Part shown: piece after piece, positions 17 to 6,128 of the stretch
How the letters are laid out: each line of letters starts with the position of its first letter
Position numbering within the stretch: the first letter of the stretch is position 1
Source of the DNA: Candidatus Methylomirabilis limnetica
GTDB lineage: Bacteria; Methylomirabilota; Methylomirabilia; Methylomirabilales; Methylomirabilaceae
Length of the DNA: 6,128 bases
Reading direction: 5' to 3'
Assembly: GCF_003044035.1 (NCBI RefSeq)
Contig: NZ_NVQC01000005.1
Coordinates: 1-6,128 of the forward strand
The notes under the pieces: generated by a model
The model's database searches: none
Seen by the model: the letters and a program-made list of their open reading frames with translations, nothing else
Told to the model about the DNA's origin: nothing
Translations under genes and position numbers: made by a program

Positions 17-127
17 AAACCCCTCCGCAATCCTTCGTAACCGGTAAATCCTGTTGCTGTTGCTTTTTCCCCACCTTCAGATATGATCCTTAATCAAACC
101 GGGCAAATTATGTGCCGGACGGTATTG
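17..127. repeat. Left arm of a perfect inverted repeat of at least 111 bp (partner 6018-6128)
   Basis: The reverse complement of 6018-6128, checked block by block, equals 17-127 with no mismatch. Pairing stops at 128/6017. The right arm runs into the window edge, so the true length is unknown. The inner end coincides with the first base of core copy 1 (127-137). Confidence 0.95.
60..87 (+). promoter_or_regulatory. Candidate sigma70-type promoter inside the inverted repeat, facing inward (mirror copy on the minus strand at 6058-6085)
   Basis: TTGCTT (60-65), 16-nt spacer, TATGAT (82-87): 3/6 and 5/6 matches to TTGACA/TATAAT. Sequence match only, no other support. Confidence 0.2.
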
Positions 128-416
128 GGACAGACACTATTTATCGTGACGATTCGTGGTGTGTACGGTCATGATCGTGCATGCCACGAATTACCCGAAC
201 CGTTGCATCCGGCCACCCGTATCATGCGAGACAACAAGGGAATGATCGCCAGGCGGTCTTTCGGAACGACAGCGATTCGAATGCGCACGATGACAGAGCG
301 GCCACTGCGAAGAGACGGGATCATCTGGGGGGGGGGTGCGCAGGACACTGGACGAGTAATACACGTGTCGCAGAGGGGAAGACCAAGAAGGGAAGTCAAT
401 AAATAGTGTCTGTCCC
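127..416 (+). mobile_element. Non-coding MITE-like element A (290 bp) bounded by inverted copies of the 11-nt core
   Basis: 127-144 GGGACAGACACTATTTAT is the exact reverse complement of 399-416 (18-bp perfect terminal inverted repeat). The body aligns to 2624-2908 with about 35 mismatches and 5 gap positions (hand alignment). The ORF open in A (83..406) is broken in copy B by a 1-nt indel and an in-frame TGA, so the conservation is not protein-coding. Confidence 0.75.
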
Positions 417-439
417 TATTTACTATATTTACTATTTAC
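417..439 (+). repeat. Short tandem repeat abutting core copy 2: TATTTAC TATATTTAC TATTTAC
   Basis: Units at 417-423, 424-432 and 433-439, starting on the first base after GTGTCTGTCCC. Confidence 0.9.
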
Positions 440-459
440 AAGAACAGCGAGAGAAAGTT

Positions 460-595
460 GTCATTGCGAACGAAGTGAAGCAATCTCGCATTGTTGCACT
501 GAGATTGCCGCGTACCCTGCGGGTGCTACTCAGAAACTGGCAAAGTGTCTGCCACCTGCGGGTCAGCCACCGCTGGATTGGGCACTCGCAATGAC
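460..595. repeat. REP-like nested imperfect palindrome
   Basis: The outer arms GTCATTGCGA (460-469) and TCGCAATGAC (586-595) are exact reverse complements. Inner hairpin: GCAATCTC (480-487) / GAGATTGC (501-508) with a 13-nt loop. CCTGCGGGT is repeated at 516-524 and 555-563. The overlapping ORF 406..594 looks like a by-product of the repeat. Confidence 0.6.
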
Positions 596-682
596 GTAAG
601 AAATCGAGTGGTTGCGAGGTCTATCGCTGTTCTTGGGCTGAAATACTTGCCGGACGCCTCAATGTGTTCTATAACTACTGAT

Positions 683-1021
683 ATGGATGATCAATACGTC
701 ACCCTCGCGCCGTCTCCTCTGATACTCCTGCCGGTCTACACCGGCATTACCTCTCTCGATGAGGCCGTTCGTGATCCGCGGGGGACCCGCCTGCTCTGGC
801 TTGAACTCCTGGTCAATGACGGCCTCGATCTTCGCCCGTGGTGGGAACGCCCGGAGGTTCGAGAGGCGTATCAGAAGGCATGCCGCTGGTACACCACGTA
901 CCGAAGCGTACTGGAAGCGGTACTGCCGCGCCCTCCTCTCCCTCCTGATCCTGGCCCGGTTGACCCCCGTGAGTACCGTCTGTTTGCGGAGGCAATAAGG
1001 TTTGTCTGCGCTCACGATTGA
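683..1021 (+). CDS. Hypothetical protein (112 aa from ATG 683), upstream partner of the nucleotidyltransferase gene
   Basis: Part of ORF 545..1021. The third-position GC bias typical of the other genes here begins about at ATG 683. The in-frame starts GTG 545 and ATG 662 lie in or next to the REP-like palindrome. There is no clear SD, so the start is uncertain. The stop overlaps the next gene by 20 nt. No family recognised. Confidence 0.45.
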   Translation: MDDQYVTLAPSPLILLPVYTGITSLDEAVRDPRGTRLLWLELLVNDGLDLRPWWERPEVREAYQKACRWYTTYRSVLEAVLPRPPLPPDPGPVDPREYRLFAEAIRFVCAHD

Positions 1022-1574
1022 TCAACTGACTGCGCTGCTTGCCGCCTACACCCATGAGACTGGGGTGCCTGTAGACCTTCTTCTGGTGGGTGGCCTCGCG
1101 CTCCAGGCGTATGGCTACACGGATCGCGCGACACAGGATGTGGACGGCGAGGTTGCCGGAGATCCTGAACACCTGAGCGCATTTCTGCGGCGACACCACG
1201 TCCCGGCCGACCTCGGAGAGAATCTCTCAAGCTGGTCAGTCATTGCCATGCCGCCTGGCTACCGCGATCGAGCCGTCGTACACCATACGCGACCTGGTCT
1301 TCGCCTGCGGCTCTTACACCCCACCGATTTCGTGATCGCAAAGCTCCGGCGTGGGACCGAGCTTGACCTGGACGATGCTGAGTATGTGGCGCGGCGGTTC
1401 CACGTGACTTCGGACACCGTGCGGCAGGCTGCGGAAGCGGCCCTCGCCGTCTCCCCGAAGGATACGGTGCTTTTCCTGTTCCGCATAACGGTCCAGGTGT
1501 TCTGTGCCCGACTGTCCAATGCGGGGACGCCCCCTTTGGAAAAGGGGGCGGGGGGGTTTTTACGGAACACTTAG
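1002..1574 (+). CDS. Nucleotidyltransferase-fold protein, AbiEii/DUF6036-like (190 aa)
   Basis: TTG start with GGAGG (988-992) 9 nt upstream. The N-terminal LLLVGGLALQAYGYTDRATQDVD fits the pol-beta-type signature (G-G/S, short spacer, D-x-D) as it appears in AbiEii/DUF6036-type proteins. HPTDFVIAKLRRGTELDLDDAEYV is typical of that group. The last ~15 codons run through a GC-rich palindromic repeat (PPLEKGAGGF...), so the native C-terminus may have been replaced. Confidence 0.6.
   Translation: MSALTIDQLTALLAAYTHETGVPVDLLLVGGLALQAYGYTDRATQDVDGEVAGDPEHLSAFLRRHHVPADLGENLSSWSVIAMPPGYRDRAVVHHTRPGLRLRLLHPTDFVIAKLRRGTELDLDDAEYVARRFHVTSDTVRQAAEAALAVSPKDTVLFLFRITVQVFCARLSNAGTPPLEKGAGGFLRNT
1528..1561 (+). 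repeat. GC-rich palindromic repeat unit (CGCCCCCTTT-GGA-AAAGGGGGCG) followed by G6T5; possible terminator-like hairpin
   Basis: The 10-bp stem 1528-1537 / 1541-1550 is exactly complementary, with a 3-nt loop, followed by GGGGGGTTTTT. It lies inside the 3' end of CDS 1002..1574, before its stop codon. Confidence 0.6.
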
Positions 1575-1606
1575 TGAGCGACAGGAAGGGAGAAACCCCC
1601 TTCAAT

Positions 1607-1625
1607 CCCCCTTTGCCAAAGGGGG
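1607..1625. repeat. Second GC-rich palindromic unit CCCCCTTTG-C-CAAAGGGGG
   Basis: 19-nt palindrome sharing the CCCCCTTT/AAAGGGGG arms with 1528-1550. The 10-mer TACGGAACAC also recurs at 1561-1570 and 1717-1726. Confidence 0.55.
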
Positions 1626-2130
1626 AGAAAAGACGGGTAATGACCAGATAGACCAAAGAGGAGGGGATATTAGATTCCTCCCTGCCTGTGCGTGGCTGTA
1701 CGCAGGCCGGTTCACCTACGGAACACCCGGAAGCACCTAAAAGAACTCTGCTAAGATAGGCTGCACTTACAGTGGCTTCCTGGCCGTCTGGAAAAGGAAA
1801 GTGGGAGGGTATTGCTCCCCCTCCCGCTTCGTCGTGATGTTGTTGACTCCCGCTAGACCTGCGGACCGTACTTGCCAAACGTTGCAATAATGTGGATCTC
1901 GTTTTTTCCTATCCCTTTTCCGTTTCTCCAGATTTTCCCTTTCAGCTCCTGCGCGTAGGAGCGTTATTTATTCTCAATTGGCCCCTGGGCCAAAAACAGA
2001 GGGATGTAGCCCATGACCGCGATTTGTCCCGAAGTTGCGGGAAAATGTCATTTACCGGATTATCCAGGCCGGTAGGCGTCAGAGCGATCTGGAGAGCAGT
2101 TCCATGAAAATCATTGAACCCGATCGCATT

Positions 2131-2196
2131 ATCGTGACCGCGAACAGCACGAATTGTCACGATAATAGTGTCTGTCCCTATTTTACCTATTTTATG
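2131..2196 (-). repeat. Inverted copy of the element left-end module (hairpin + core copy 3 + tandem TATTTTAYN units) without an A/B-type body
   Basis: Perfect 8-bp hairpin ATCGTGAC (2131-2138) / GTCACGAT (2156-2163) with a 17-nt loop, then AATA, then GTGTCTGTCCC (2168-2178), then TATTTTACC TATTTTATG (2179-2196). The reverse complement matches 127-175 of element A. Similarity to A/B is lost beyond the hairpin. Confidence 0.8.
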
Positions 2197-2198
2197 TC

Positions 2199-2238
2199 TA
2201 AGAAGGGATGTCAATAAATAGTGTCTGTCCCTATTTAC
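2199..2238 (+). repeat. Solo copy of the element right end (core copy 4)
   Basis: 2199-2238 matches 384-423 (the right end of element A plus its first TATTTAC unit) at 38 of 40 positions. Core at 2221-2231. No element body precedes it. Confidence 0.85.
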
Positions 2239-2603
2239 TCGGATCTGTGCACAAGTGGAGCGATAGGATCATAGTTAACTTCGACTCCCTTCTCTGCGCC
2301 GGGGGCCCCAATCACCAAGGCGACAGCACCTACTTCTTTGGCCTTGTCTCTGCACGGCCGCCAAGGTCTGTCGCAGCATCTATCAAGGAGACGGTCCGCT
2401 TAGCCTCTGAGTCGCCAAAACTCAAGAAAGAGCTACGACACGACGTGTTGGTCCGCGTGCCCCAGACAGGCACGGCGAGTGAGCCAGATCGTCCAGGAAG
2501 TCTTTGAGATCAATCCCGGGATTGCCAGAGTAACCTGTAGCGATTTGGCGGAGAACCTGATCCGACCCTACGGGTCCAAAGGACGAGGCTGGAGCTTGTG
2601 CCG

Positions 2604-2935
2604 TTAAATAAAAATAGAAAATAGGGACAGGCACTATCATCGTGACGATTCGTGATGCTTGCGGTCATGATCGTGCCTGTTACAGATTACCAGAACCGTT
2701 GCACCCGGCCACCCGTATCGTGTGACGGAACGAGGGAGTGATCGCCAGGCGGTCTTTCGGAACGACAACGATTCGAAAGCGGACGATGACAGAGCGGCCG
2801 ATGCAAAGAGACGGGTTCATCTGGGAGGTGCGCAGGACACTGGACGAGTCATACACGTGTGGCAGAGGGGAAGGCCAAGAAAGGATCTCAATAAATAGTG
2901 TCCGTCCCTATATCACCCCTATATCACCTATATCA
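2604..2935 (+). mobile_element. Non-coding MITE-like element B with both AT-rich flanks (core to core 2624-2908)
   Basis: The left flank 2604-2623 reads outward as TATTTTC TATTTTTA TTTAA. Then come core GGGACAGGCAC (2624-2634), hairpin 2639-2671, a body about 85% identical to A, core GTGTCCGTCCC (2898-2908), and TATATCACCCC TATATCACC TATATCA (2909-2935). Confidence 0.75.
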
Positions 2936-3051
2936 AGGATGGCTCACTGTCACCGAAGGGGAGTTGACGACACCCCGCATGAGGTGGACTGTAGGCGGAG
3001 CGTGAGTGTTTTGGTTCTCGTGAGTTGGACCATTAAAAAGGAGCGTCACGC

Positions 3052-3269
3052 ATGGGCGACCGGCTCTTAAGCGCGCAGGAGGTGGCGGCTCGGCTCAACC
3101 TGAAGGTGTGCACAGTGATGACTTGGTGGCGAAGGGCGACCTGTCAGCCCTCCGCTTTAGGAGAAAGCTCCGGATTCGGCCTGGCGCGGTGGATGCCTTG
3201 GTGACGGCGCGAGAACAGCCCGTGGCTGAGCACGGCGTTCAGAATCGGGTTTTTCTGCAGCCTCGTTAG
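3052..3269 (+). pseudogene. Excisionase/MerR-like HTH (HTH_17-type) DNA-binding protein, frameshifted
   Basis: AGGAG (3039-3043) lies 8 nt before ATG 3052. Frame 1 gives MGDRLLSAQEVAARLNLKVCTV, then nonsense to TGA 3202-3204. The -1 frame from about 3120 gives DLVAKGDLSALRFRRKLRIRPGAVDALV... to TAG 3267-3269. Joined together they match the excisionase-type pattern LLt..EvA..L.v...Tv..lv..G.L.a.r.gr..ri. This implies a 1-nt loss near 3118-3119, or a sequencing error. Confidence 0.6.
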
Positions 3270-3298
3270 GCATTCTTACGATTCTCTCATTTTAAATA

Positions 3299-3337
3299 GT
3301 TGCTGTCCCTATTATTCACTATTATTCTATTATTCAA
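3299..3337 (+). repeat. Degenerate solo end: core copy 7 (GTTGCTGTCCC) plus three tandem TATTATTC units
   Basis: Core variant at 3299-3309 (GT swapped to TG at positions 3-4), preceded by TTTTAAATA as in the right-end flank. It is followed by TATTATTCAC (3310-3319), TATTATTC (3320-3327) and TATTATTCAA (3328-3337). Confidence 0.7.
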
Positions 3338-3425
3338 CGTGTGAACCGATCCCACTTTTGAACGCGCGAGTTCTCGGTCATGGCCCTCTGGGCGGAACCG
3401 CGTGTAACGACACTGGAGTGACCAG

Positions 3426-4733
3426 ATGCGTCGTATTTTGTGCAGTCTCGCGGTCGTGCTGACCCCCATCCTGGCTTGGGCGGGGGTCGATCGCCCGCCG
3501 GTCACGTTTAATAAAGACGTCCTCCCGATCCTGCAGAGGAACTGTCAGGGATGCCACCGGCCTGGGGAAGCGGCGCCGATGCCGCTGCTGACCTACCAGG
3601 ATGCGCGACCTTGGATCAAGGCTATTCGTGATGCGGTCCTGCAACAGCGAATGCCGCCGTGGTTCGCCGACTCACAACACGGCAAGTTCGCCAACGATCG
3701 CTCGCTCTCGCAGGCCGAAATCGACACGCTGGTGGCCTGGGTCGACGGGGGCGCCCGCGAAGGAGACGCCGCCGATCTGCCGCCACCACGGGAGTTTGTC
3801 AAGGGATGGAACATCGGCCGACCGGACCTGGTCTTCGAAATGCCGAGGGAATTCCACGTTCCGGATTCCGGCACGATCCAGTATCAGTACGTTGTGATAC
3901 CCACCGGCTTCACAGGGGACAGGTGGGTACAGATGGCAGAGATACGTCCAGGCAATAGGGCGTTGGTCCATCATGTCATGGTGTACCTTCGCGAGCCGGG
4001 GTCGAAGTGGCTGCACTGGGCTAAGCCCGGCGAGCCGTTTGAGGTACGGAGCTTGCGAGACGGGTCGCGACGATTCGATCTCCTGGTCGGCTTTGTTCCG
4101 GGCAGTGTACCGCAGATGCTAAAACCCGGTCAGGCCAAGCTTATCAAGGCTGGATCCGACCTGGTTTTTGAGCTGCACTATACGGCGAACGGGAAAGCCG
4201 GGACGGATCGCACCCGTATGGGCCTGATTTTCGCCAAGGAACCGCCCGTGGAGCAAGTCAGTACTATTTGGGCCAAGAACCGCGTATTCGTGATCCCCGC
4301 CGGAGCGCCGAATCACCGCGTGGACGCCGAGCGGACACTTGATCATGACGTGACTCTACTCGCCCTGCTCCCCCACATGCATCTGCGGGGGAAATCTGTG
4401 CAGTACCGGGCAGTCTACCCGACGGGGGAATCACAGATCCTGCTCGATGTACCGAGATACAGCGTCAACTGGCAGCTTTCTTACTATCTGAAGGAGCCTC
4501 TACTTCTCCCCAAGGGGACGCGTATCGAGTGCACAGGCTACTTCGACAATTCAGCGAACAATCCCAACAATCCGAATTCGGCGGTCGCGGTTCGGTACGG
4601 TAAACAGAGCCAGGACGAGATGATGGTCTGCCTCATGGATGTGACTTCTCGACGCCGCGATGAATCCGGGGCTTCTATTCAAAAGGGAGATGGCGAGGTT
4701 CTGCAACGCCCGTCGCCCGAGCCGCCTGACTGA
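3426..4733 (+). CDS. Secreted cytochrome c domain fused to a copper type II ascorbate-dependent monooxygenase (PHM/DBH)-like domain (435 aa)
   Basis: GGAG lies 7 nt before ATG 3426. The Sec-type signal peptide is MRRILCSLAVVLTPILAWA. The heme c motif CQGCH is at 3543-3557. The full PHM-type ligand pattern has matching spacing: HH (aa 182-183, nt 3969-3974), H251 (4176-4178), HMH (aa 317-319, 4374-4382) and DEMM (Met 399/400, 4620-4625). It is the longest ORF in the window. Confidence 0.8.
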   Translation: MRRILCSLAVVLTPILAWAGVDRPPVTFNKDVLPILQRNCQGCHRPGEAAPMPLLTYQDARPWIKAIRDAVLQQRMPPWFADSQHGKFANDRSLSQAEIDTLVAWVDGGAREGDAADLPPPREFVKGWNIGRPDLVFEMPREFHVPDSGTIQYQYVVIPTGFTGDRWVQMAEIRPGNRALVHHVMVYLREPGSKWLHWAKPGEPFEVRSLRDGSRRFDLLVGFVPGSVPQMLKPGQAKLIKAGSDLVFELHYTANGKAGTDRTRMGLIFAKEPPVEQVSTIWAKNRVFVIPAGAPNHRVDAERTLDHDVTLLALLPHMHLRGKSVQYRAVYPTGESQILLDVPRYSVNWQLSYYLKEPLLLPKGTRIECTGYFDNSANNPNNPNSAVAVRYGKQSQDEMMVCLMDVTSRRRDESGASIQKGDGEVLQRPSPEPPD

Positions 4734-4965
4734 ATCCTTGGGATTTGGCGCGGCCGAATCAGCGATGGGTAGGACTCACGGTATCTTTCCGCGTTTGGTC
4801 GCAGTGATCGGGCTGTGCTATTTGCGCCAACGGGCCACGATGGGACGCAAGATCGGAGACTACATCGTACAGAACCACCTCAAGCCTGTCCGCTAACTAA
4901 CAGAGGGGATGGTCGGGCGGTCTTCCTTAAAGGTAGAAGGAAAGGTGCTCTGAGGCATGCCCGGC

Positions 4966-5178
4966 CTAACCGGTAAGGGGGTTGTGCTTCGCCAGGATCG
5001 GCTCCCGATAGCGCTGGAAGCCGTTACGCCAAATCTCCCAGAGGCGCTGATTCTTGAAGGTCCCTTCGGAATAGGCAGCCTCGGGGAGGCCAATTGCCCC
5101 GCTGACCTCCCCTGTTAGCATGATGGCACAGACGCTCACATTGCACCCGAACCATTGGCCGTAATGTCGCGCAGCGGC
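4966..5178 (-). pseudogene. Decayed radical-SAM SPASM-domain fragment (copy 2)
   Basis: The open frame reads ...GQWFGCNVSVCAIMLTGEVSGAIGLPEAAYSEGTFKNQRLWEIWRNGFQRYREPILAKHNPLTG*. It keeps the C-x10-G-x4 spacing of the SPASM motif, but Ala replaces the closing Cys. It also lacks the CX2CX5CX3C block. No radical-SAM core lies upstream. Confidence 0.5.
4993..5076. repeat. 84-bp direct repeat, copy 1 (partner 5357-5440)
   Basis: 77 of 84 positions are identical to 5357-5440 by hand alignment, at an offset of 364 bp. It encodes the shared QRL.EIWRNGFQRYREPIL segment of the two SPASM fragments on the minus strand. Confidence 0.9.
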
Positions 5179-5243
5179 TTATGTTTCGTCAGCGTTGGTT
5201 TCGTGTACGGTTGCTTTGGAGCCGACGTGACACCGTTCTTCAT
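5136..5243 (-). CDS. Small ORF, 35 aa (MKNGVTSAPKQPYTKPTLTKHKPLRDITANGSGAM); speculative peptide gene
   Basis: GGAGGAGG ends 6 nt before the ATG (5243-5241). The ATG overlaps the TGA of the upstream fragment as ATGA. Its 3' third overlaps the SPASM-like frame of 4966-5178 in a different frame, which argues against it being real. Confidence 0.2.
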   Translation of the reverse strand: MKNGVTSAPKQPYTKPTLTKHKPLRDITANGSGAM

Positions 5244-5572
5244 GCGTTTCCTCCTCCTTCCCAGGGTCGTTTCAGACAGTGACGATCGCCCACGCGCATT
5301 CCGAACTTCCCACCACCGCAGGTAGGGGGGTAGTAGCAGACGCTACACTCCTCGGTCAGGATCGGTTCCCGATAGCGCTGGAAGCCGTTACGCCAAATCT
5401 CCCTGAGGCGCTGATCCTTGATGGGCCCTTCGAAATCGGCCACAGCATACCACGTCAAGTCGGTCAGATCAACCCAGCGAGGGGCCCTCACGTCTTCCGG
5501 CTTGTCTGTTCCGTTGTGCCCCAGGTTATCGGCATTGGGGATCATGCGATCTCCCGGCGTCAAGTCTTCCAC
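5240..5572 (-). pseudogene. Radical-SAM SPASM-domain C-terminal fragment (copy 1, 110 aa ORF)
   Basis: The fragment ...DQRLREIWRNGFQRYREPILTEECSVCYYPPTCGGGK carries CX2CX5CX3 with Lys in place of the final Cys. The N-terminal 50 aa are unlike a radical-SAM core. A stop codon lies immediately upstream of GTG 5572. An alternative ATG at 5545 has GGGAG 5 nt upstream. Confidence 0.5.
5357..5440. repeat. 84-bp direct repeat, copy 2 (partner 4993-5076)
   Basis: See 4993-5076. Confidence 0.9.
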
Positions 5573-5990
5573 AATTTAACTGCTGTCTTCACGCAGTCAG
5601 GTTGGCCGCTCCATATATATGGTAGGCTACTGAGCATTGCTTCCCCGTCCTTGTACGCGAAAAACTGCCTTCAGCGTTGCTTTCCTCTCCTGGTTACATA
5701 CCATCGCATGCCGAAGGTGAAGCTTGAGCTTCAAGTTTGCTCTCTGATTGAGTGGCCAGTTGCCAGAAAGCGAGCTCTTGTTGGTAGTGGAAGCCCTTGA
5801 GCCCAGACATGTAGTGAATCTGGGCCTTCACCCATAGTGAAAGCGCGATGGACGATATCCTAAGTCGATTCGGTATCGACAAGCAAACTAAGGACACCGG
5901 CCGTGGCGTTATCCGGCGGCTACAGAAGCTGCGGTACCTGTACGGCGTGATCTGGGCGGAACTCCGATCAAAGGTGCGACTCCCTGTCCG

Positions 5991-6018
5991 AAAATTAAAA
6001 TAAAATAGGGACAGACAC
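5991..6018 (+). repeat. Left-end-type module truncated at the core: AT-rich flank + core copy 8
   Basis: AAAATTAAAATAAAATA (5991-6007) reads outward as TATTTTA TTTTAA TTTT. It is followed by GGGACAGACAC (6008-6018), which is joined directly to the inverted repeat instead of to the hairpin flank. Confidence 0.8.
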
Positions 6019-6128
6019 AATACCGTCCGGCACATAATTTGCCCGGTTTGATTAAGGATCATATCTGAAGGTGGGGAAAAAGCAACAGCAACAGGATTTA
6101 CCGGTTACGAAGGATTGCGGAGGGGTTT
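6018..6128. repeat. Right arm of the perfect inverted repeat (partner 17-127), truncated by the window edge
   Basis: See 17-127. Confidence 0.95.

Follow-up and report, generated by a model that had tools for sequence, protein, structure and literature searches.

The locus

The window is an entire contig of Candidatus Methylomirabilis limnetica, 6,128 nucleotides long, and eight copies of an 11-nt core are spread along it. Exact GGGACAGACAC lies at 127 (+), 406 (-), 2168 (-), 2221 (-) and 6008 (+), one-mismatch versions lie at 2624 (+) and 2898 (-), and a copy with two mismatches (GGGACAGCAAC) lies at 3299 (-). With up to one mismatch allowed, there are seven matches where 0.14 are expected by chance, and none of 200 shuffles reached seven. 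All eight copies listed in an earlier note on this DNA are therefore there, and its argument that chance recurrence is unlikely holds. We accept the copy at 3299 as genuine because a tandem array adjoins it and its AATA/TATT frame is preserved. Both features are missing from the other four matches with two mismatches (545, 560, 5125 and 5502, with 1.8 expected by chance).

When every copy is oriented as GTGTCTGTCCC, the flanks fall into the classes that the earlier note described. On the 5' side, copies 1, 3 and 5 read ...cgtcacgat(a)aata, copies 2, 4 and 6 read ...tcaataaata, and copy 8 has a long inverted repeat. On the 3' side, seven copies have tandem units starting with TAT, and copy 1 has the long inverted repeat. 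This repeat pairs 17-142 with 6003-6128 (126 nt). Its five mismatches are all core positions, which means that the core points the same way at the two contig ends while its surroundings are inverted. Outside the core, the arms form a perfect 110-nt inverted repeat. Arm X (17..126, +) adjoins the outer face of copy 1 and was delimited by self-comparison (L001 starts at the last shared 55-mer); arm X' (6019..6128, -) adjoins the inner face of copy 8 and was delimited by self-comparison and strain comparison. The X arm had no match among the fetched loci, the scanned metagenome contigs or Rfam.

The largest core-bounded features are two mini-units. Mini-unit 1 (127..416, +), defined by tblastn and blastn, reads as a transposase unit with an internal deletion of ~457 bp. 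It begins with core copy 1 (127-137) and a degenerate promoter region with a local hairpin (138-180), continues with relics of transposase residues 1-32 (181-270) and 183-225 (272-403; tblastn identities of 53% and 57% for the two pieces), and ends with a TAG stop (404-406) that overlaps core copy 2 (406-416). By blastn against the resident M. limnetica gene (L152), 124-270 corresponds to 5945-6090 and 273-421 to 6548-6693; the mini-unit can also be aligned to L092. Mini-unit 2 (2624..2908, +), defined by self-comparison, tblastn and blastn, is 86% identical to mini-unit 1, lacks a start codon and is bounded by copy 5 (GGGACAGGCAC, 2624-2634) and copy 6 (GTGTCCGTCCC, 2898-2908). The first reading of this DNA had missed that 127-416 and 2624-2908 are two copies (86%) of a single 290-bp element with inverted cores at its bounds.

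The remaining sites are partial. An inverted half-unit with the left end only (2126..2178, -; self-comparison) consists of core copy 3 (2168-2178) and the promoter/hairpin region, and adjoins a DUF6036 cassette; its single-strand DNA fold has z = -3.5. A half-unit with the right end only (2200..2231, +; 98% identical to 385-424) holds the last ~21 nt of the coding end and core copy 4 (2221-2231). Copy 7 (3299-3309) is a lone end (3299..3336, +) whose degenerate core, GTTGCTGTCCC, is also found in Omnitrophota arrays; it is followed by units TATTATTCAC / TATTATTC / TATTATTCAACG. Copy 8 (6008-6018) stands with units TATTTTA / TTTTAA / TTTT (5990..6018, -) facing into the segment. Outer-face tandem units also adjoin copy 2 (TATTTAC / TATATTTAC / TATTTAC, 417..440, +), copy 3 (TATTTTACC / TATTTTATG, 2179..2199, +), copy 5 (TATTTTC / TATTTTTA / TTTAACGG in minus-strand reading, 2600..2623, -) and copy 6 (TATATCACCCC / TATATCACC / TATATCAAGG, 2909..2935, +).

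Four cassettes lie between these sites. The first (441..2125, +) carries a small ORF and a DUF6036 nucleotidyltransferase (1002-1574), the second (2241..2599) lies between convergent sites and has no recognised gene, the third (2936..3298, +) has a frameshifted small HTH-like gene (3052-3269), and the fourth (3337..5989) encodes a 435-aa cytochrome-c-like protein (3426-4733) beside duplicated gene fragments. The window thus contains no intact transposase gene, only gene-less relics and ends—two 290-bp internally deleted units, a left half-end, a right half-end, one degenerate lone end and two ends joined to the 110-nt inverted repeat—all between small cassettes in a variable island.

The complete unit and its transposase

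GGGACAGACAC is the invariant centre of a terminal inverted repeat of ~21 bp, AAATA-GTGTCTGTCCC-TATTT, in which the frame consensus is partly a product of site selection, as the 17-mer used for the site census required ATA/TAT frames. The complete unit is ~0.74-0.75 kb and was found bracketed by this repeat in at least ten phyla. It opens with the repeat, followed by a sigma70-type promoter (TTGACA-N17-TAATnn) whose end is ~6 nt from the ATG, by the gene, and by a stop codon that overlaps the inverted repeat. The encoded protein, 225 aa long, is a Y1 HUH transposase of class 2 (RAYT/TIRYT type) whose C-terminus is an AT-hook-like RGRP tail. Judged by sequence, the window repeats are this unit minus ~457 bp of the gene.

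At three loci (L046, L092 and L126), inverted cores ~730 bp apart enclose ORFs of 224-225 aa that match Pfam PF01797 (Y1_Tnp; E 1e-14 to 1e-16) and no other Pfam domain. The top NCBIfam model for these proteins is REP-associated tyrosine transposase (80.6, 71.9 and 65.9 bits, with a cut-off of 80), and transpos_IS200 scores 25 bits with a cut-off of 55. The transposases are 224-226 aa long and carry the motifs NHVH, WQ and YVERNP; their agreement with the subclass 2.1 motifs of Quentin 2018 was judged by eye from the alignment rather than with the authors' HMMs. GRP and RGRP motifs are conserved in the tail, which hardly varies across the family, and Pfam detected no C-terminal HTH domain (Bac_DnaA_C, HTH_23 or HTH_28). 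An AlphaFold model (pLDDT 86.6) matched 4ER8 best (E. coli TnpA-REP with a REP hairpin; E 1e-7, identity ~18%), followed by IS608 and ISDra2 TnpA.

Searching with the protein first, we found exact cores at a Scalindua japonica gene (L150) and a gene of the Methylomirabilis cluster (L151). In both, as in L046, L092, L126 and L111, one core is found 54 nt ahead of the ATG and the other, in inverted orientation, overlaps the stop. The Omnitrophota transposase gene has a co-varying core, GTCGCTGTCCC. The core is exact across phyla although the proteins are only 47-63% identical, which argues for continued selection via recognition by the protein. Folded as a single strand, the site itself gives -2.3 to -3.9 kcal/mol (z 0 to -0.8), no better than shuffles and with no convincing hairpin, so the REP paradigm (hairpin plus GTAG) is not directly transferable; the left-end hairpin is restricted to Methylomirabilis copies and is not conserved elsewhere.

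The unit's anatomy changes how the flanks are read. The earlier note took their mixing for modular reassortment, but much of it is the ordinary layout of a single transposase unit. The "hairpin-type" flank is the left inner end (promoter), the "TCAATAAATA-type" flank is the right inner end (the 3' end of the coding region, whose stop overlaps the core), and the TAT-rich flank is the outside of the unit.

One could also read the core as an operator for the Y1 protein or another factor, with the TAT units as -10-like boxes controlling adjacent cassettes. The left-end repeat does lie directly upstream of the transposase's TTGACA-N17-TAATnn promoter, three window sites are followed by same-strand genes within 130-270 nt, and the near-invariant RGRP tail is AT-hook-like. 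However, a consensus scan of the window found no promoter at any core or array, and each site has units of its own sequence, whose number changes between near-identical strains, which fits a mutational footprint better than a conserved signal. Autoregulation at the left end would be compatible with the transposase-end reading and does not compete with it. We regard a primarily regulatory role as very unlikely.

M. limnetica has one intact full-length copy of the gene (PTL35238.1), outside the window at a conserved locus between thiI and NMO, and synteny around the transposase gene is kept in 6 M. limnetica-type contigs and 10 Omnitrophota samples. The right-end core of the M. limnetica gene is degenerate (GTGCCCGTACC), and the mini-units are only 76-80% identical to this gene, so any present activity in this organism is putative. 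The resident gene could work in trans.

Distribution across phyla

The census covered 120 loci from many phyla and 174 sites. Full units and mini-units number 4 each, 8 units measure 71-200 bp, and there are 21 doublets and 100 lone ends. Sites are mostly extragenic, with 22% in ORFs as against 80% of all bases. Across the sites, the centre (the core) is invariant and the arms are short, degenerate and A/T. The earlier note had proposed looking for a recombinase or transposase gene that co-occurs with the motif across genomes, and the Y1 transposase gene does so across phyla.

That note also likened the core to the spacer/overlap region of a recombinase site. On that reading, a site-specific recombination system of the tyrosine or serine type (integron attC, Xer/pdif or shufflon sfx) would use the 11 bp as its overlap region and invert or exchange cassettes. 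An asymmetric centre within a short palindromic frame looks the part, and so do cassettes that are bounded by alternating or convergent sites and vary in content between strains there. However, conservation runs the wrong way (the central 11 bp vary least, and the arms around them are short stretches of degenerate A/T), no ORF or Pfam match in the window is a tyrosine or serine recombinase, what the sites enclose in many phyla is the gene of a Y1 HUH transposase, and lone ends and doublets are dispersed throughout genomes. We therefore rejected attC, dif/pdif and sfx as candidates and give a recombinase core site hardly any credence.

Tandem units and strain differences

The TAT-rich units sit on the outer face of the repeat. 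They are tandem duplications with a start precisely at CCC|T and a C as last base. Tandem Repeats Finder placed five of the six arrays in the window directly next to a core. Duplications of 7-11 nt starting exactly at the outer boundary were found at 26 of 172 sites, compared with 1/172 on the inner side and 0/172 at a control position 25 nt farther out. For lone ends only, the comparison at equal A+T content was 14/87 versus 1/87 (p = 6e-4). The base preceding each repeated unit was C in 46 of 62 cases (74%, against a background of 17%). At an orthologous Omnitrophota locus with an identical protein in ten samples, there are 1-5 upstream and 1-2 downstream repeat copies in varying order; the array units share 27 nt and are nearly all delimited by CCC|TATTTATG, the one exception being unit "e", whose junction is not at C^T.

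When the window is compared with four strains or samples (L002, L007, L008 and L009), homology breaks off at six points, five of which (window 124, 439, 2183, 2237 and 6018) are at a distance of 0-23 nt from a core. L008 has one extra 14-nt unit (TATTTTAATGTCCC) in the copy 3 array (2179..2199), and L009 lacks 2179-2231, a deletion between 20-nt direct repeats. In L007 the DUF6036 cassette (441..2125) follows type I R-M/SIR2 genes and in L008 it follows cheR, a Fic cassette replaces window cassette 2241..2599 in L008 and L009, and L002, L008 and L009 share the same 28 nt as the copy 8 region, then have a third mini-unit in place of X'. Gene-less relics and lone ends mark the places at which strains differ in their gene cassettes. 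L002 also has a hybrid element whose crossover lies within window 211-225 / 2707-2721, not at the core, and its deletion arose by ordinary homologous recombination within the element.

The earlier note's proposal of breakage and rejoining at the core is therefore partly supported. Strain breakpoints near cores, the unit variation in Omnitrophota and the co-occurring transposase gene speak for the core as a place where DNA is joined to different partners, but the L002 crossover falls elsewhere, and the system is HUH/REP-like rather than a recombinase core site.

A proposed nick at the outer boundary

Our preferred explanation, which we consider likely from the sequence patterns and from related enzymes, is that the core is the terminal-repeat centre of a TIRtron/REPtron-like Y1 unit, with single-strand nicking and rejoining at C^T on its outer boundary. 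TnpA-REP enzymes cut single-stranded DNA at CT (or CA), 5' or 3' of the repeat (PMC8266576). By analogy with the solved and assayed TnpA-REP, the protein would recognise the core and nick the strand GTGTCTGTCCC^T at the outer boundary, and the 5' end held on the catalytic tyrosine would be rejoined to another C-3'OH, near or distant. Through such rejoining, a segment lying between two C^T positions would be duplicated or lost, giving tandem units. The same reaction could disperse lone ends and doublets and swap the DNA outside the repeat, giving cassette junctions, and the resulting repeats would also act as portable homology in ordinary recombination. We infer the C^T nick from sequence footprints and from distant relatives (~18% identity to 4ER8).

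Alternatively, the units could have the same identity but be dead relics, with all rearrangements driven by the host (RecA acting on 290-bp or 20-30-bp repeats, slippage in A/T-rich DNA) and the Y1 protein having no present role. The L002 crossover inside the element and the L009 deletion between direct repeats speak for this, the 27 nt shared by Omnitrophota units suffice for slippage, the window copies lack an intact gene, and one end of the resident gene is degenerate. Replication slippage between short repeats could indeed account for tandem arrays and changes in their copy number. However, the first-generation duplications had no prior repeat on which slippage could act, duplications start from a single face of the core (also among lone ends at equal A+T) and are absent 25 nt out, 74% of units end in C, and the exactness of the core across diverged proteins implies continued selection. 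A wholly passive mechanism thus seems unlikely to us.

Equally doubtful is a stronger version of the nicking explanation, in which an active Y1 enzyme uses CCC^T as a portable joining site. The enzyme would expand and contract its own flanks and excise or insert DNA between two sites, amounting to HUH-driven, integron-like cassette exchange in defence/toxin-antitoxin islands. The 5.9-kb segment, with its direct cores and perfect 110-nt inverted repeat, would then be a circle inserted at the centre of a long palindrome.

Comparison with known systems

TIRtrons (Di Nocera et al. 2013, PMC3733652; TIRYT, subclass 2.1 of Quentin et al. 2018, PMC6006769, median ~238 aa) are Y1 genes flanked by inverted repeats with consensus GGGGWSAS, accompanied by dispersed repeat families. 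Shared with our unit are a Y1 gene of ~225-240 aa with motifs NHVH, W[EQ] and Y..NP, bracketed by inverted repeats and not by GTAG-tagged REP hairpins, and dispersal as singles, dimers and groups. The G-run at the start of our repeat resembles their consensus but is not identical to it: AGGGACAG or CGGGACAG agrees with GGGGWSAS at 7/8 positions, the first G being missing. In contrast to TIRtrons, the present repeat is kept exact over many phyla, and unlike subclass 2.1, its protein has the RGRP tail where a C-terminal HTH was not detected. We did not find the GGGACAGACAC repeat with its A/T frame in the searchable literature. To our knowledge, boundary-anchored tandem units, a graded deletion series and strain-level array variation are undescribed for TIRtrons.

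REPtrons (RAYT/TnpA-REP; REP, BIME, REPIN) share the closest solved fold (4ER8), a syntenic gene between inverted short repeats and extragenic repeats as singlets and inverted doublets, and the inferred C^T cut matches the CT cleavage of the E. coli, Stenotrophomonas and Marinomonas enzymes. However, our sites have no 5' GT[AG]G tetranucleotide (the frame reads ATAG) and no stable hairpin, the NCBIfam equivalog scores are around or below cut-off, and the repeat is common to several phyla whereas REP families are lineage-specific. IS200/IS605 elements (IS608, ISDra2) also have the Y1 HUH fold and are small units whose gene is enclosed by two recognised ends. They set a precedent for "peel and paste" transposition of single strands through circular intermediates, with cleavage at sites defined by their sequence. 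They differ in having Y...Q and ~150 aa (here Y...NP, YVERNP, and 225 aa), subterminal hairpins (here true inverted terminal repeats of 18-21 nt) and many identical copies (here an intact gene at one conserved locus), and there is no tnpB here. Cassette systems (integron attC, Acinetobacter pdif) resemble the window in their small cassettes (including toxin-antitoxin-like genes), short conserved sites, variable island and strain differences at sites, but no integrase or Xer-type recombinase is present here, the site architecture is unlike attC or dif, and our sites are transposase-unit ends that are also scattered outside islands.

Implications

About a quarter of bacterial species have class 2 Y1 proteins (RAYT/TIRYT type). 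The present family provides an unusually clean handle on them: a 21-bp substrate that is exact over many phyla, a predicted CCC^T nick, and natural flank variants of an identical gene, whose units are nearly all delimited at that position. For annotation, the family accounts for short cross-phylum repeats and 290-bp "MITE-like" elements in NC10, Nitrospirota, Omnitrophota, Elusimicrobiota, anammox Planctomycetota and Desulfobacterota, and repeats of the GGGACAGACAC family break assemblies and flag variable islands.

Core copies in the window

A motif search for GGGACAGACAC found five exact copies and two with one mismatch where 0.14 are expected by chance; 200 shuffles never gave as many. This reproduces the eight-copy list of the earlier note (starts at 127, 406, 2168, 2221, 2624, 2898, 3299 and 6008), and the flank classes at each copy also agree with its description. 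The copy at 3299 has two mismatches yet retains the AATA/TATT frame and a tandem array, while the four other two-mismatch matches have neither and their number fits chance. A repeat finder added two features which that note lacked: 127-416 and 2624-2908 are one 290-bp element present twice (86% identity) with inverted cores at its ends, and the two ends of the contig are inverted repeats of each other over 126 nt, mismatched solely at the core's five asymmetric positions.

The transposase unit

In the fetched loci L046, L092 and L126, facing cores ~730 bp apart enclose an ORF of 224-225 aa which matches Pfam Y1_Tnp (E 1e-14 to 1e-16). Its top NCBIfam model is 'REP-associated tyrosine transposase', with a score at or slightly below the cut-off. 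The AlphaFold model of the protein (pLDDT 86.6) has 4ER8 as its nearest fold (E. coli TnpA-REP with a bound REP hairpin), followed by the IS608 and ISDra2 transposases; a PDB sequence search with the protein gave no matches, and these relatives emerged from the fold search only. The protein family has at least 7952 members at E≤1e-20. Its nearly invariant RGRP (216-219) and GRP (191-193) motifs are AT-hook-like and would presumably read the A/T frames.

Because the facing cores enclose one transposase ORF, the two kinds of 5' flank are the two inner ends of a single unit. The flank kinds are present as originally described, but much of their apparent reassortment is the ordinary anatomy of this unit. 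The kind ...acgaattgtcaa(n)aata carries a TTGACA-N17-TAATnn promoter that stops ~6 nt short of the ATG; the kind ...gaggaagacccaagaaag..aataaatag is the gene's 3' coding end (...RGRPKK..*), the stop codon of which overlaps the core's first base. A left-end hairpin conserved as in IS200/IS605 was considered and rejected, as the hairpin occurs in Methylomirabilis copies and is absent in other phyla, where the promoter is what is conserved. The A/T frames do not co-vary as a hairpin stem either: the mean complementary run was 4.56, barely above the 4.24 obtained with shuffled partners, so the frames are a conserved consensus.

Searching from the protein instead of the motif gave the same picture. 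Exact cores lie at both sides of the Scalindua japonica gene and of a Methylomirabilis-cluster gene, and an Omnitrophota gene (59% identical) is bracketed by the core variant GTCGCTGTCCC. The proposed search for a transposase that accompanies the motif across genomes has therefore yielded one, a Y1 gene bracketed by cores in several phyla.

Resident gene and relics in the window

The 90% cluster of the fetched protein P0014 includes M. limnetica PTL35238.1/WP_107563546.1 and M. oxyfera homologues. The neighbours of this resident M. limnetica gene, on a contig of 95 kb, are thiI and an NMO gene, and six assemblies have it at this position. Its upstream core, 54 nt away, is exact, and the core at its right end is degenerate.

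Both 290-bp mini-units derive from such a gene. In a tblastn search with the L092 protein, residues 1-49 aligned to 181-327 and residues 183-225 to 272-403 of the first mini-unit, and the second likewise aligned within 2683-2895. For residues 1-49, homology is clear only to approximately residue 32 (position 270), and the nucleotide match stops at the same point. In the DNA comparison, 124-270 and 273-421 correspond to positions 5945-6090 and 6548-6693 of the resident locus (L152). The nucleotide and protein alignments together identify the 290-bp elements as the unit minus ~457 bp, and the missing part takes in the HUH and Tyr motifs. The deletion series in the window continues with an inverted left end only (2126-2178), a right end only (2200-2231) and a degenerate lone end (3299). 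Methylomirabilis sp. bin48 has this mini-unit too, as do two contigs assigned to Patescibacteria bins. A search with the peptide of the fused relic found only other relic ORFs of 72-107 aa, and the resident full-length gene was reached via the P0014 cluster. Scanned against Rfam at a permissive threshold, the window gave a single meaningless eukaryotic lncRNA match (E 0.47), so the 290-bp repeat is not a known RNA.

Several samples retain the mini-unit ORF (72-73 aa; window 181-402; P0129, P0131, P0133), which joins transposase residues 1-32 to the tail out of frame; it may encode a truncated regulator or simply reflect high nucleotide identity. At 326-336, the first mini-unit has a run of 10-11 G where the second has GGGAGG, an expanded homopolymer which changes the reading frame of the relic.

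Census across phyla

We scanned 185,579 species genomes for the 17-mer ATAGTGTCTGTCCCTAT and obtained at least 120 loci. Approximately 70 matches are expected by chance in 596 Gb on two strands, and chance probably accounts for several single-match loci (Ruminococcus, Treponema, Flavobacteriales and others). Conclusions are based on multi-match assemblies and gene-linked sites: many assemblies have several matches, and their contexts have common features beyond chance. The matches listed include Elusimicrobiota, Nitrospirota, Omnitrophota, Brocadiaceae/Scalindua, Methylomirabilis, Desulfobacterota and other groups, and across phyla the 5' flanks are of two conserved kinds, ...acgaattgtcaa(n)aata and ...gaggaagacccaagaaag..aataaatag. 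Four matches in viral contigs are two duplicate pairs without the AAATA/TATTT frame typical of the family, and they look like chance.

The 120 loci listed hold 174 sites, among which are four full units, four mini-units of ~285 bp, eight units of 71-200 bp, 21 doublets (core, short palindrome, inverted core) and 100 lone ends. Doublets flank some genes (L075, L099), as in REPtrons. In the loci listed, sites are depleted in ORFs, with 22% inside compared with 80% of all bases.

Methylomirabilis-type mini-units or left ends (81-98% identity) were seen in L077 and L078 (DATMXF01, binned as Patescibacteria) and L107 (binned as Bifidobacteriaceae), contigs which are probably mis-binned. Methylomirabilis sp. 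bin48 has a second unit of ~110 bp between inverted cores (L114 258-366 and 3899-4009; L081 6511-6621), with an interior that is unrelated to the transposase gene and has its own hairpin (gagacggc/gccgtctc).

Tandem units on the outer face

The TAT-rich tandem units are invariably at the gene-distal face of the core. Tandem duplications (7-11 nt, ≥85% identity) start exactly at the core boundary on the outer face at 26 of 172 sites, on the inner face at one of 172 and, in a control 25 nt further out, at none of 172. The asymmetry holds for lone ends (14/87 outer vs 1/87 inner, p = 6e-4), whose inner side is under no constraint and has the same A/T richness. A C precedes the repeated unit in 46 of 62 cases, compared with a background of 17%, so the units run from ^T... 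to ...C^, and some include (T)GTCCC of the core.

Five of the six TRF arrays in the window adjoin cores. Strains differ in these units, L008 having an extra one of 14 nt at the 2168 site. At an Omnitrophota locus with an identical protein in ten samples, 1-5 upstream and 1-2 downstream repeat copies occur in differing orders, and nearly all units are cut at CCC/TATTTATG. The sequence 3' of the Scalindua gene reads CCC/TTGTTTTCC/TTGTTTTCC/TTGTTTTCCC/TTGTTTTC/TGG. A consensus scan for outward promoters in the TAT arrays found none.

Strain breakpoints and contig ends

Other strains and samples depart from the window at six breakpoints. At 124, L007 has TA units and hsdR in place of the left inverted-repeat arm (X); a Fic cassette follows directly after 2183 in L009 and after 2237 in L008; at 6018, L002 has a third mini-unit in place of the right arm (X'); and at 439, directly after the TA units, L008 continues into cheR-side DNA with no site. 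Cores ±25 nt make up ~8% of the contig and contain five of the six breakpoints, which is not chance. The sixth, a hybrid element in L002 with its crossover inside the element (within 211-225 / 2707-2721), is ordinary homologous recombination. The earlier proposal of breakage and rejoining at a fixed site is thus partly supported. Both processes operate, and short direct-repeat deletions do not discriminate between the two.

A perfect inverted repeat of ~110-111 nt (17-127 and 6018-6128; at least 110 nt long) flanks a 5.9-kb segment; the cores at the two ends have the same orientation, and the arms adjoin them at opposite faces. The independent SPAdes contig L001 corresponds to window 73-6055 and both starts and ends exactly at the last 55-mer common to both arms, so both arm-core junctions are in the reads. 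On the outward-reading strand both joints are C^AATACC. X gave two chance matches only in a 20-mer scan of JGI metagenome contigs and no BLAST match in all fetched loci. A hypothetical circle with the L002 junction, inserted into a palindromic site, would give the 5.9-kb arrangement.

Several other features of the region were seen. The 435-aa, 190-aa and 101-aa window proteins are exact matches to M. limnetica PTL37233-5. A DUF6036 nucleotidyltransferase and an upstream small ORF (545-1574) look like a toxin-antitoxin pair; the DUF6036 gene is preceded in L007 (1-9086) by SIR2, DUF87, Schlafen/AlbA_2 and type I restriction genes and followed in L008/L009 by the Fic cassette; this region is an island of defence and toxin-antitoxin genes. 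G+C self-complementary hairpins CCCCCTTTGGAAAAGGGGG and CCCCCTTTGCCAAAGGGGG (1530-1548 and 1607-1625; similar copy at L008 ~6851-6870) resemble paired terminators or a second family of small palindromic repeats. Just past the TA units is a nested inverted-repeat element (439-635; arms 439-454 / 620-635); 441-527 is 83% identical to a Nitrospiria contig (L129 2153-2239), and L002 (3700-3752) has the outer part only. A frameshift divides a small helix-turn-helix-like gene (3052-3269), which by eye resembles excisionase/MerR genes, into ORFs of 50 and 53 aa; the first has no Pfam match. An 84-nt direct repeat (92%; 4993-5076 and 5357-5440), at which short-read contigs L003-L006 stop, lies inside two minus-strand ORF fragments ('Radical SAM protein' by UniRef name) and is a duplicated gene fragment.

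Proposed mechanism and relation to known systems

The full repeat site, AAATAGTGTCTGTCCCTATTTAC, is the putative substrate of the Y1 protein. We infer that the protein nicks GTGTCTGTCCC^T and that the tyrosine-bound 5' end can be rejoined to another C-3'OH, which would produce duplications, deletions, the spread of lone ends and the exchange of outer flanks. For the TnpA-REP proteins of E. coli, Stenotrophomonas and Marinomonas, the cleavage site in single-stranded DNA is a CT (or CA) lying 5' or 3' of the repeat, and these proteins can also transfer strands (PMC8266576). In contrast to a simple REP model, the site's hairpin fold is no better than that of shuffled sequence, and the GTAG tag is absent.

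The closest described kind is TIRtron/TIRYT (Di Nocera et al. 2013, PMC3733652), assigned to subclass 2.1 by Quentin et al. 2018 (PMC6006769). Like it, the present family has the NHVH/WQ/Y..NP motifs, a protein of similar length, inverted repeats as flanks and families of dispersed repeats. Its repeat agrees with the TIRtron GGGGWSAS consensus at 7/8 positions, the first G being absent. It departs from TIRtron/TIRYT in lacking the HTH tail, in the cross-phylum conservation of its core, in its boundary footprints and in arrays that vary between strains. The motif was not found in the searched literature, where text matches were unrelated eukaryotic primer sequences only and TIRtron/TIRYT is rarely mentioned. 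We therefore regard this as a new family within a known, barely studied kind.
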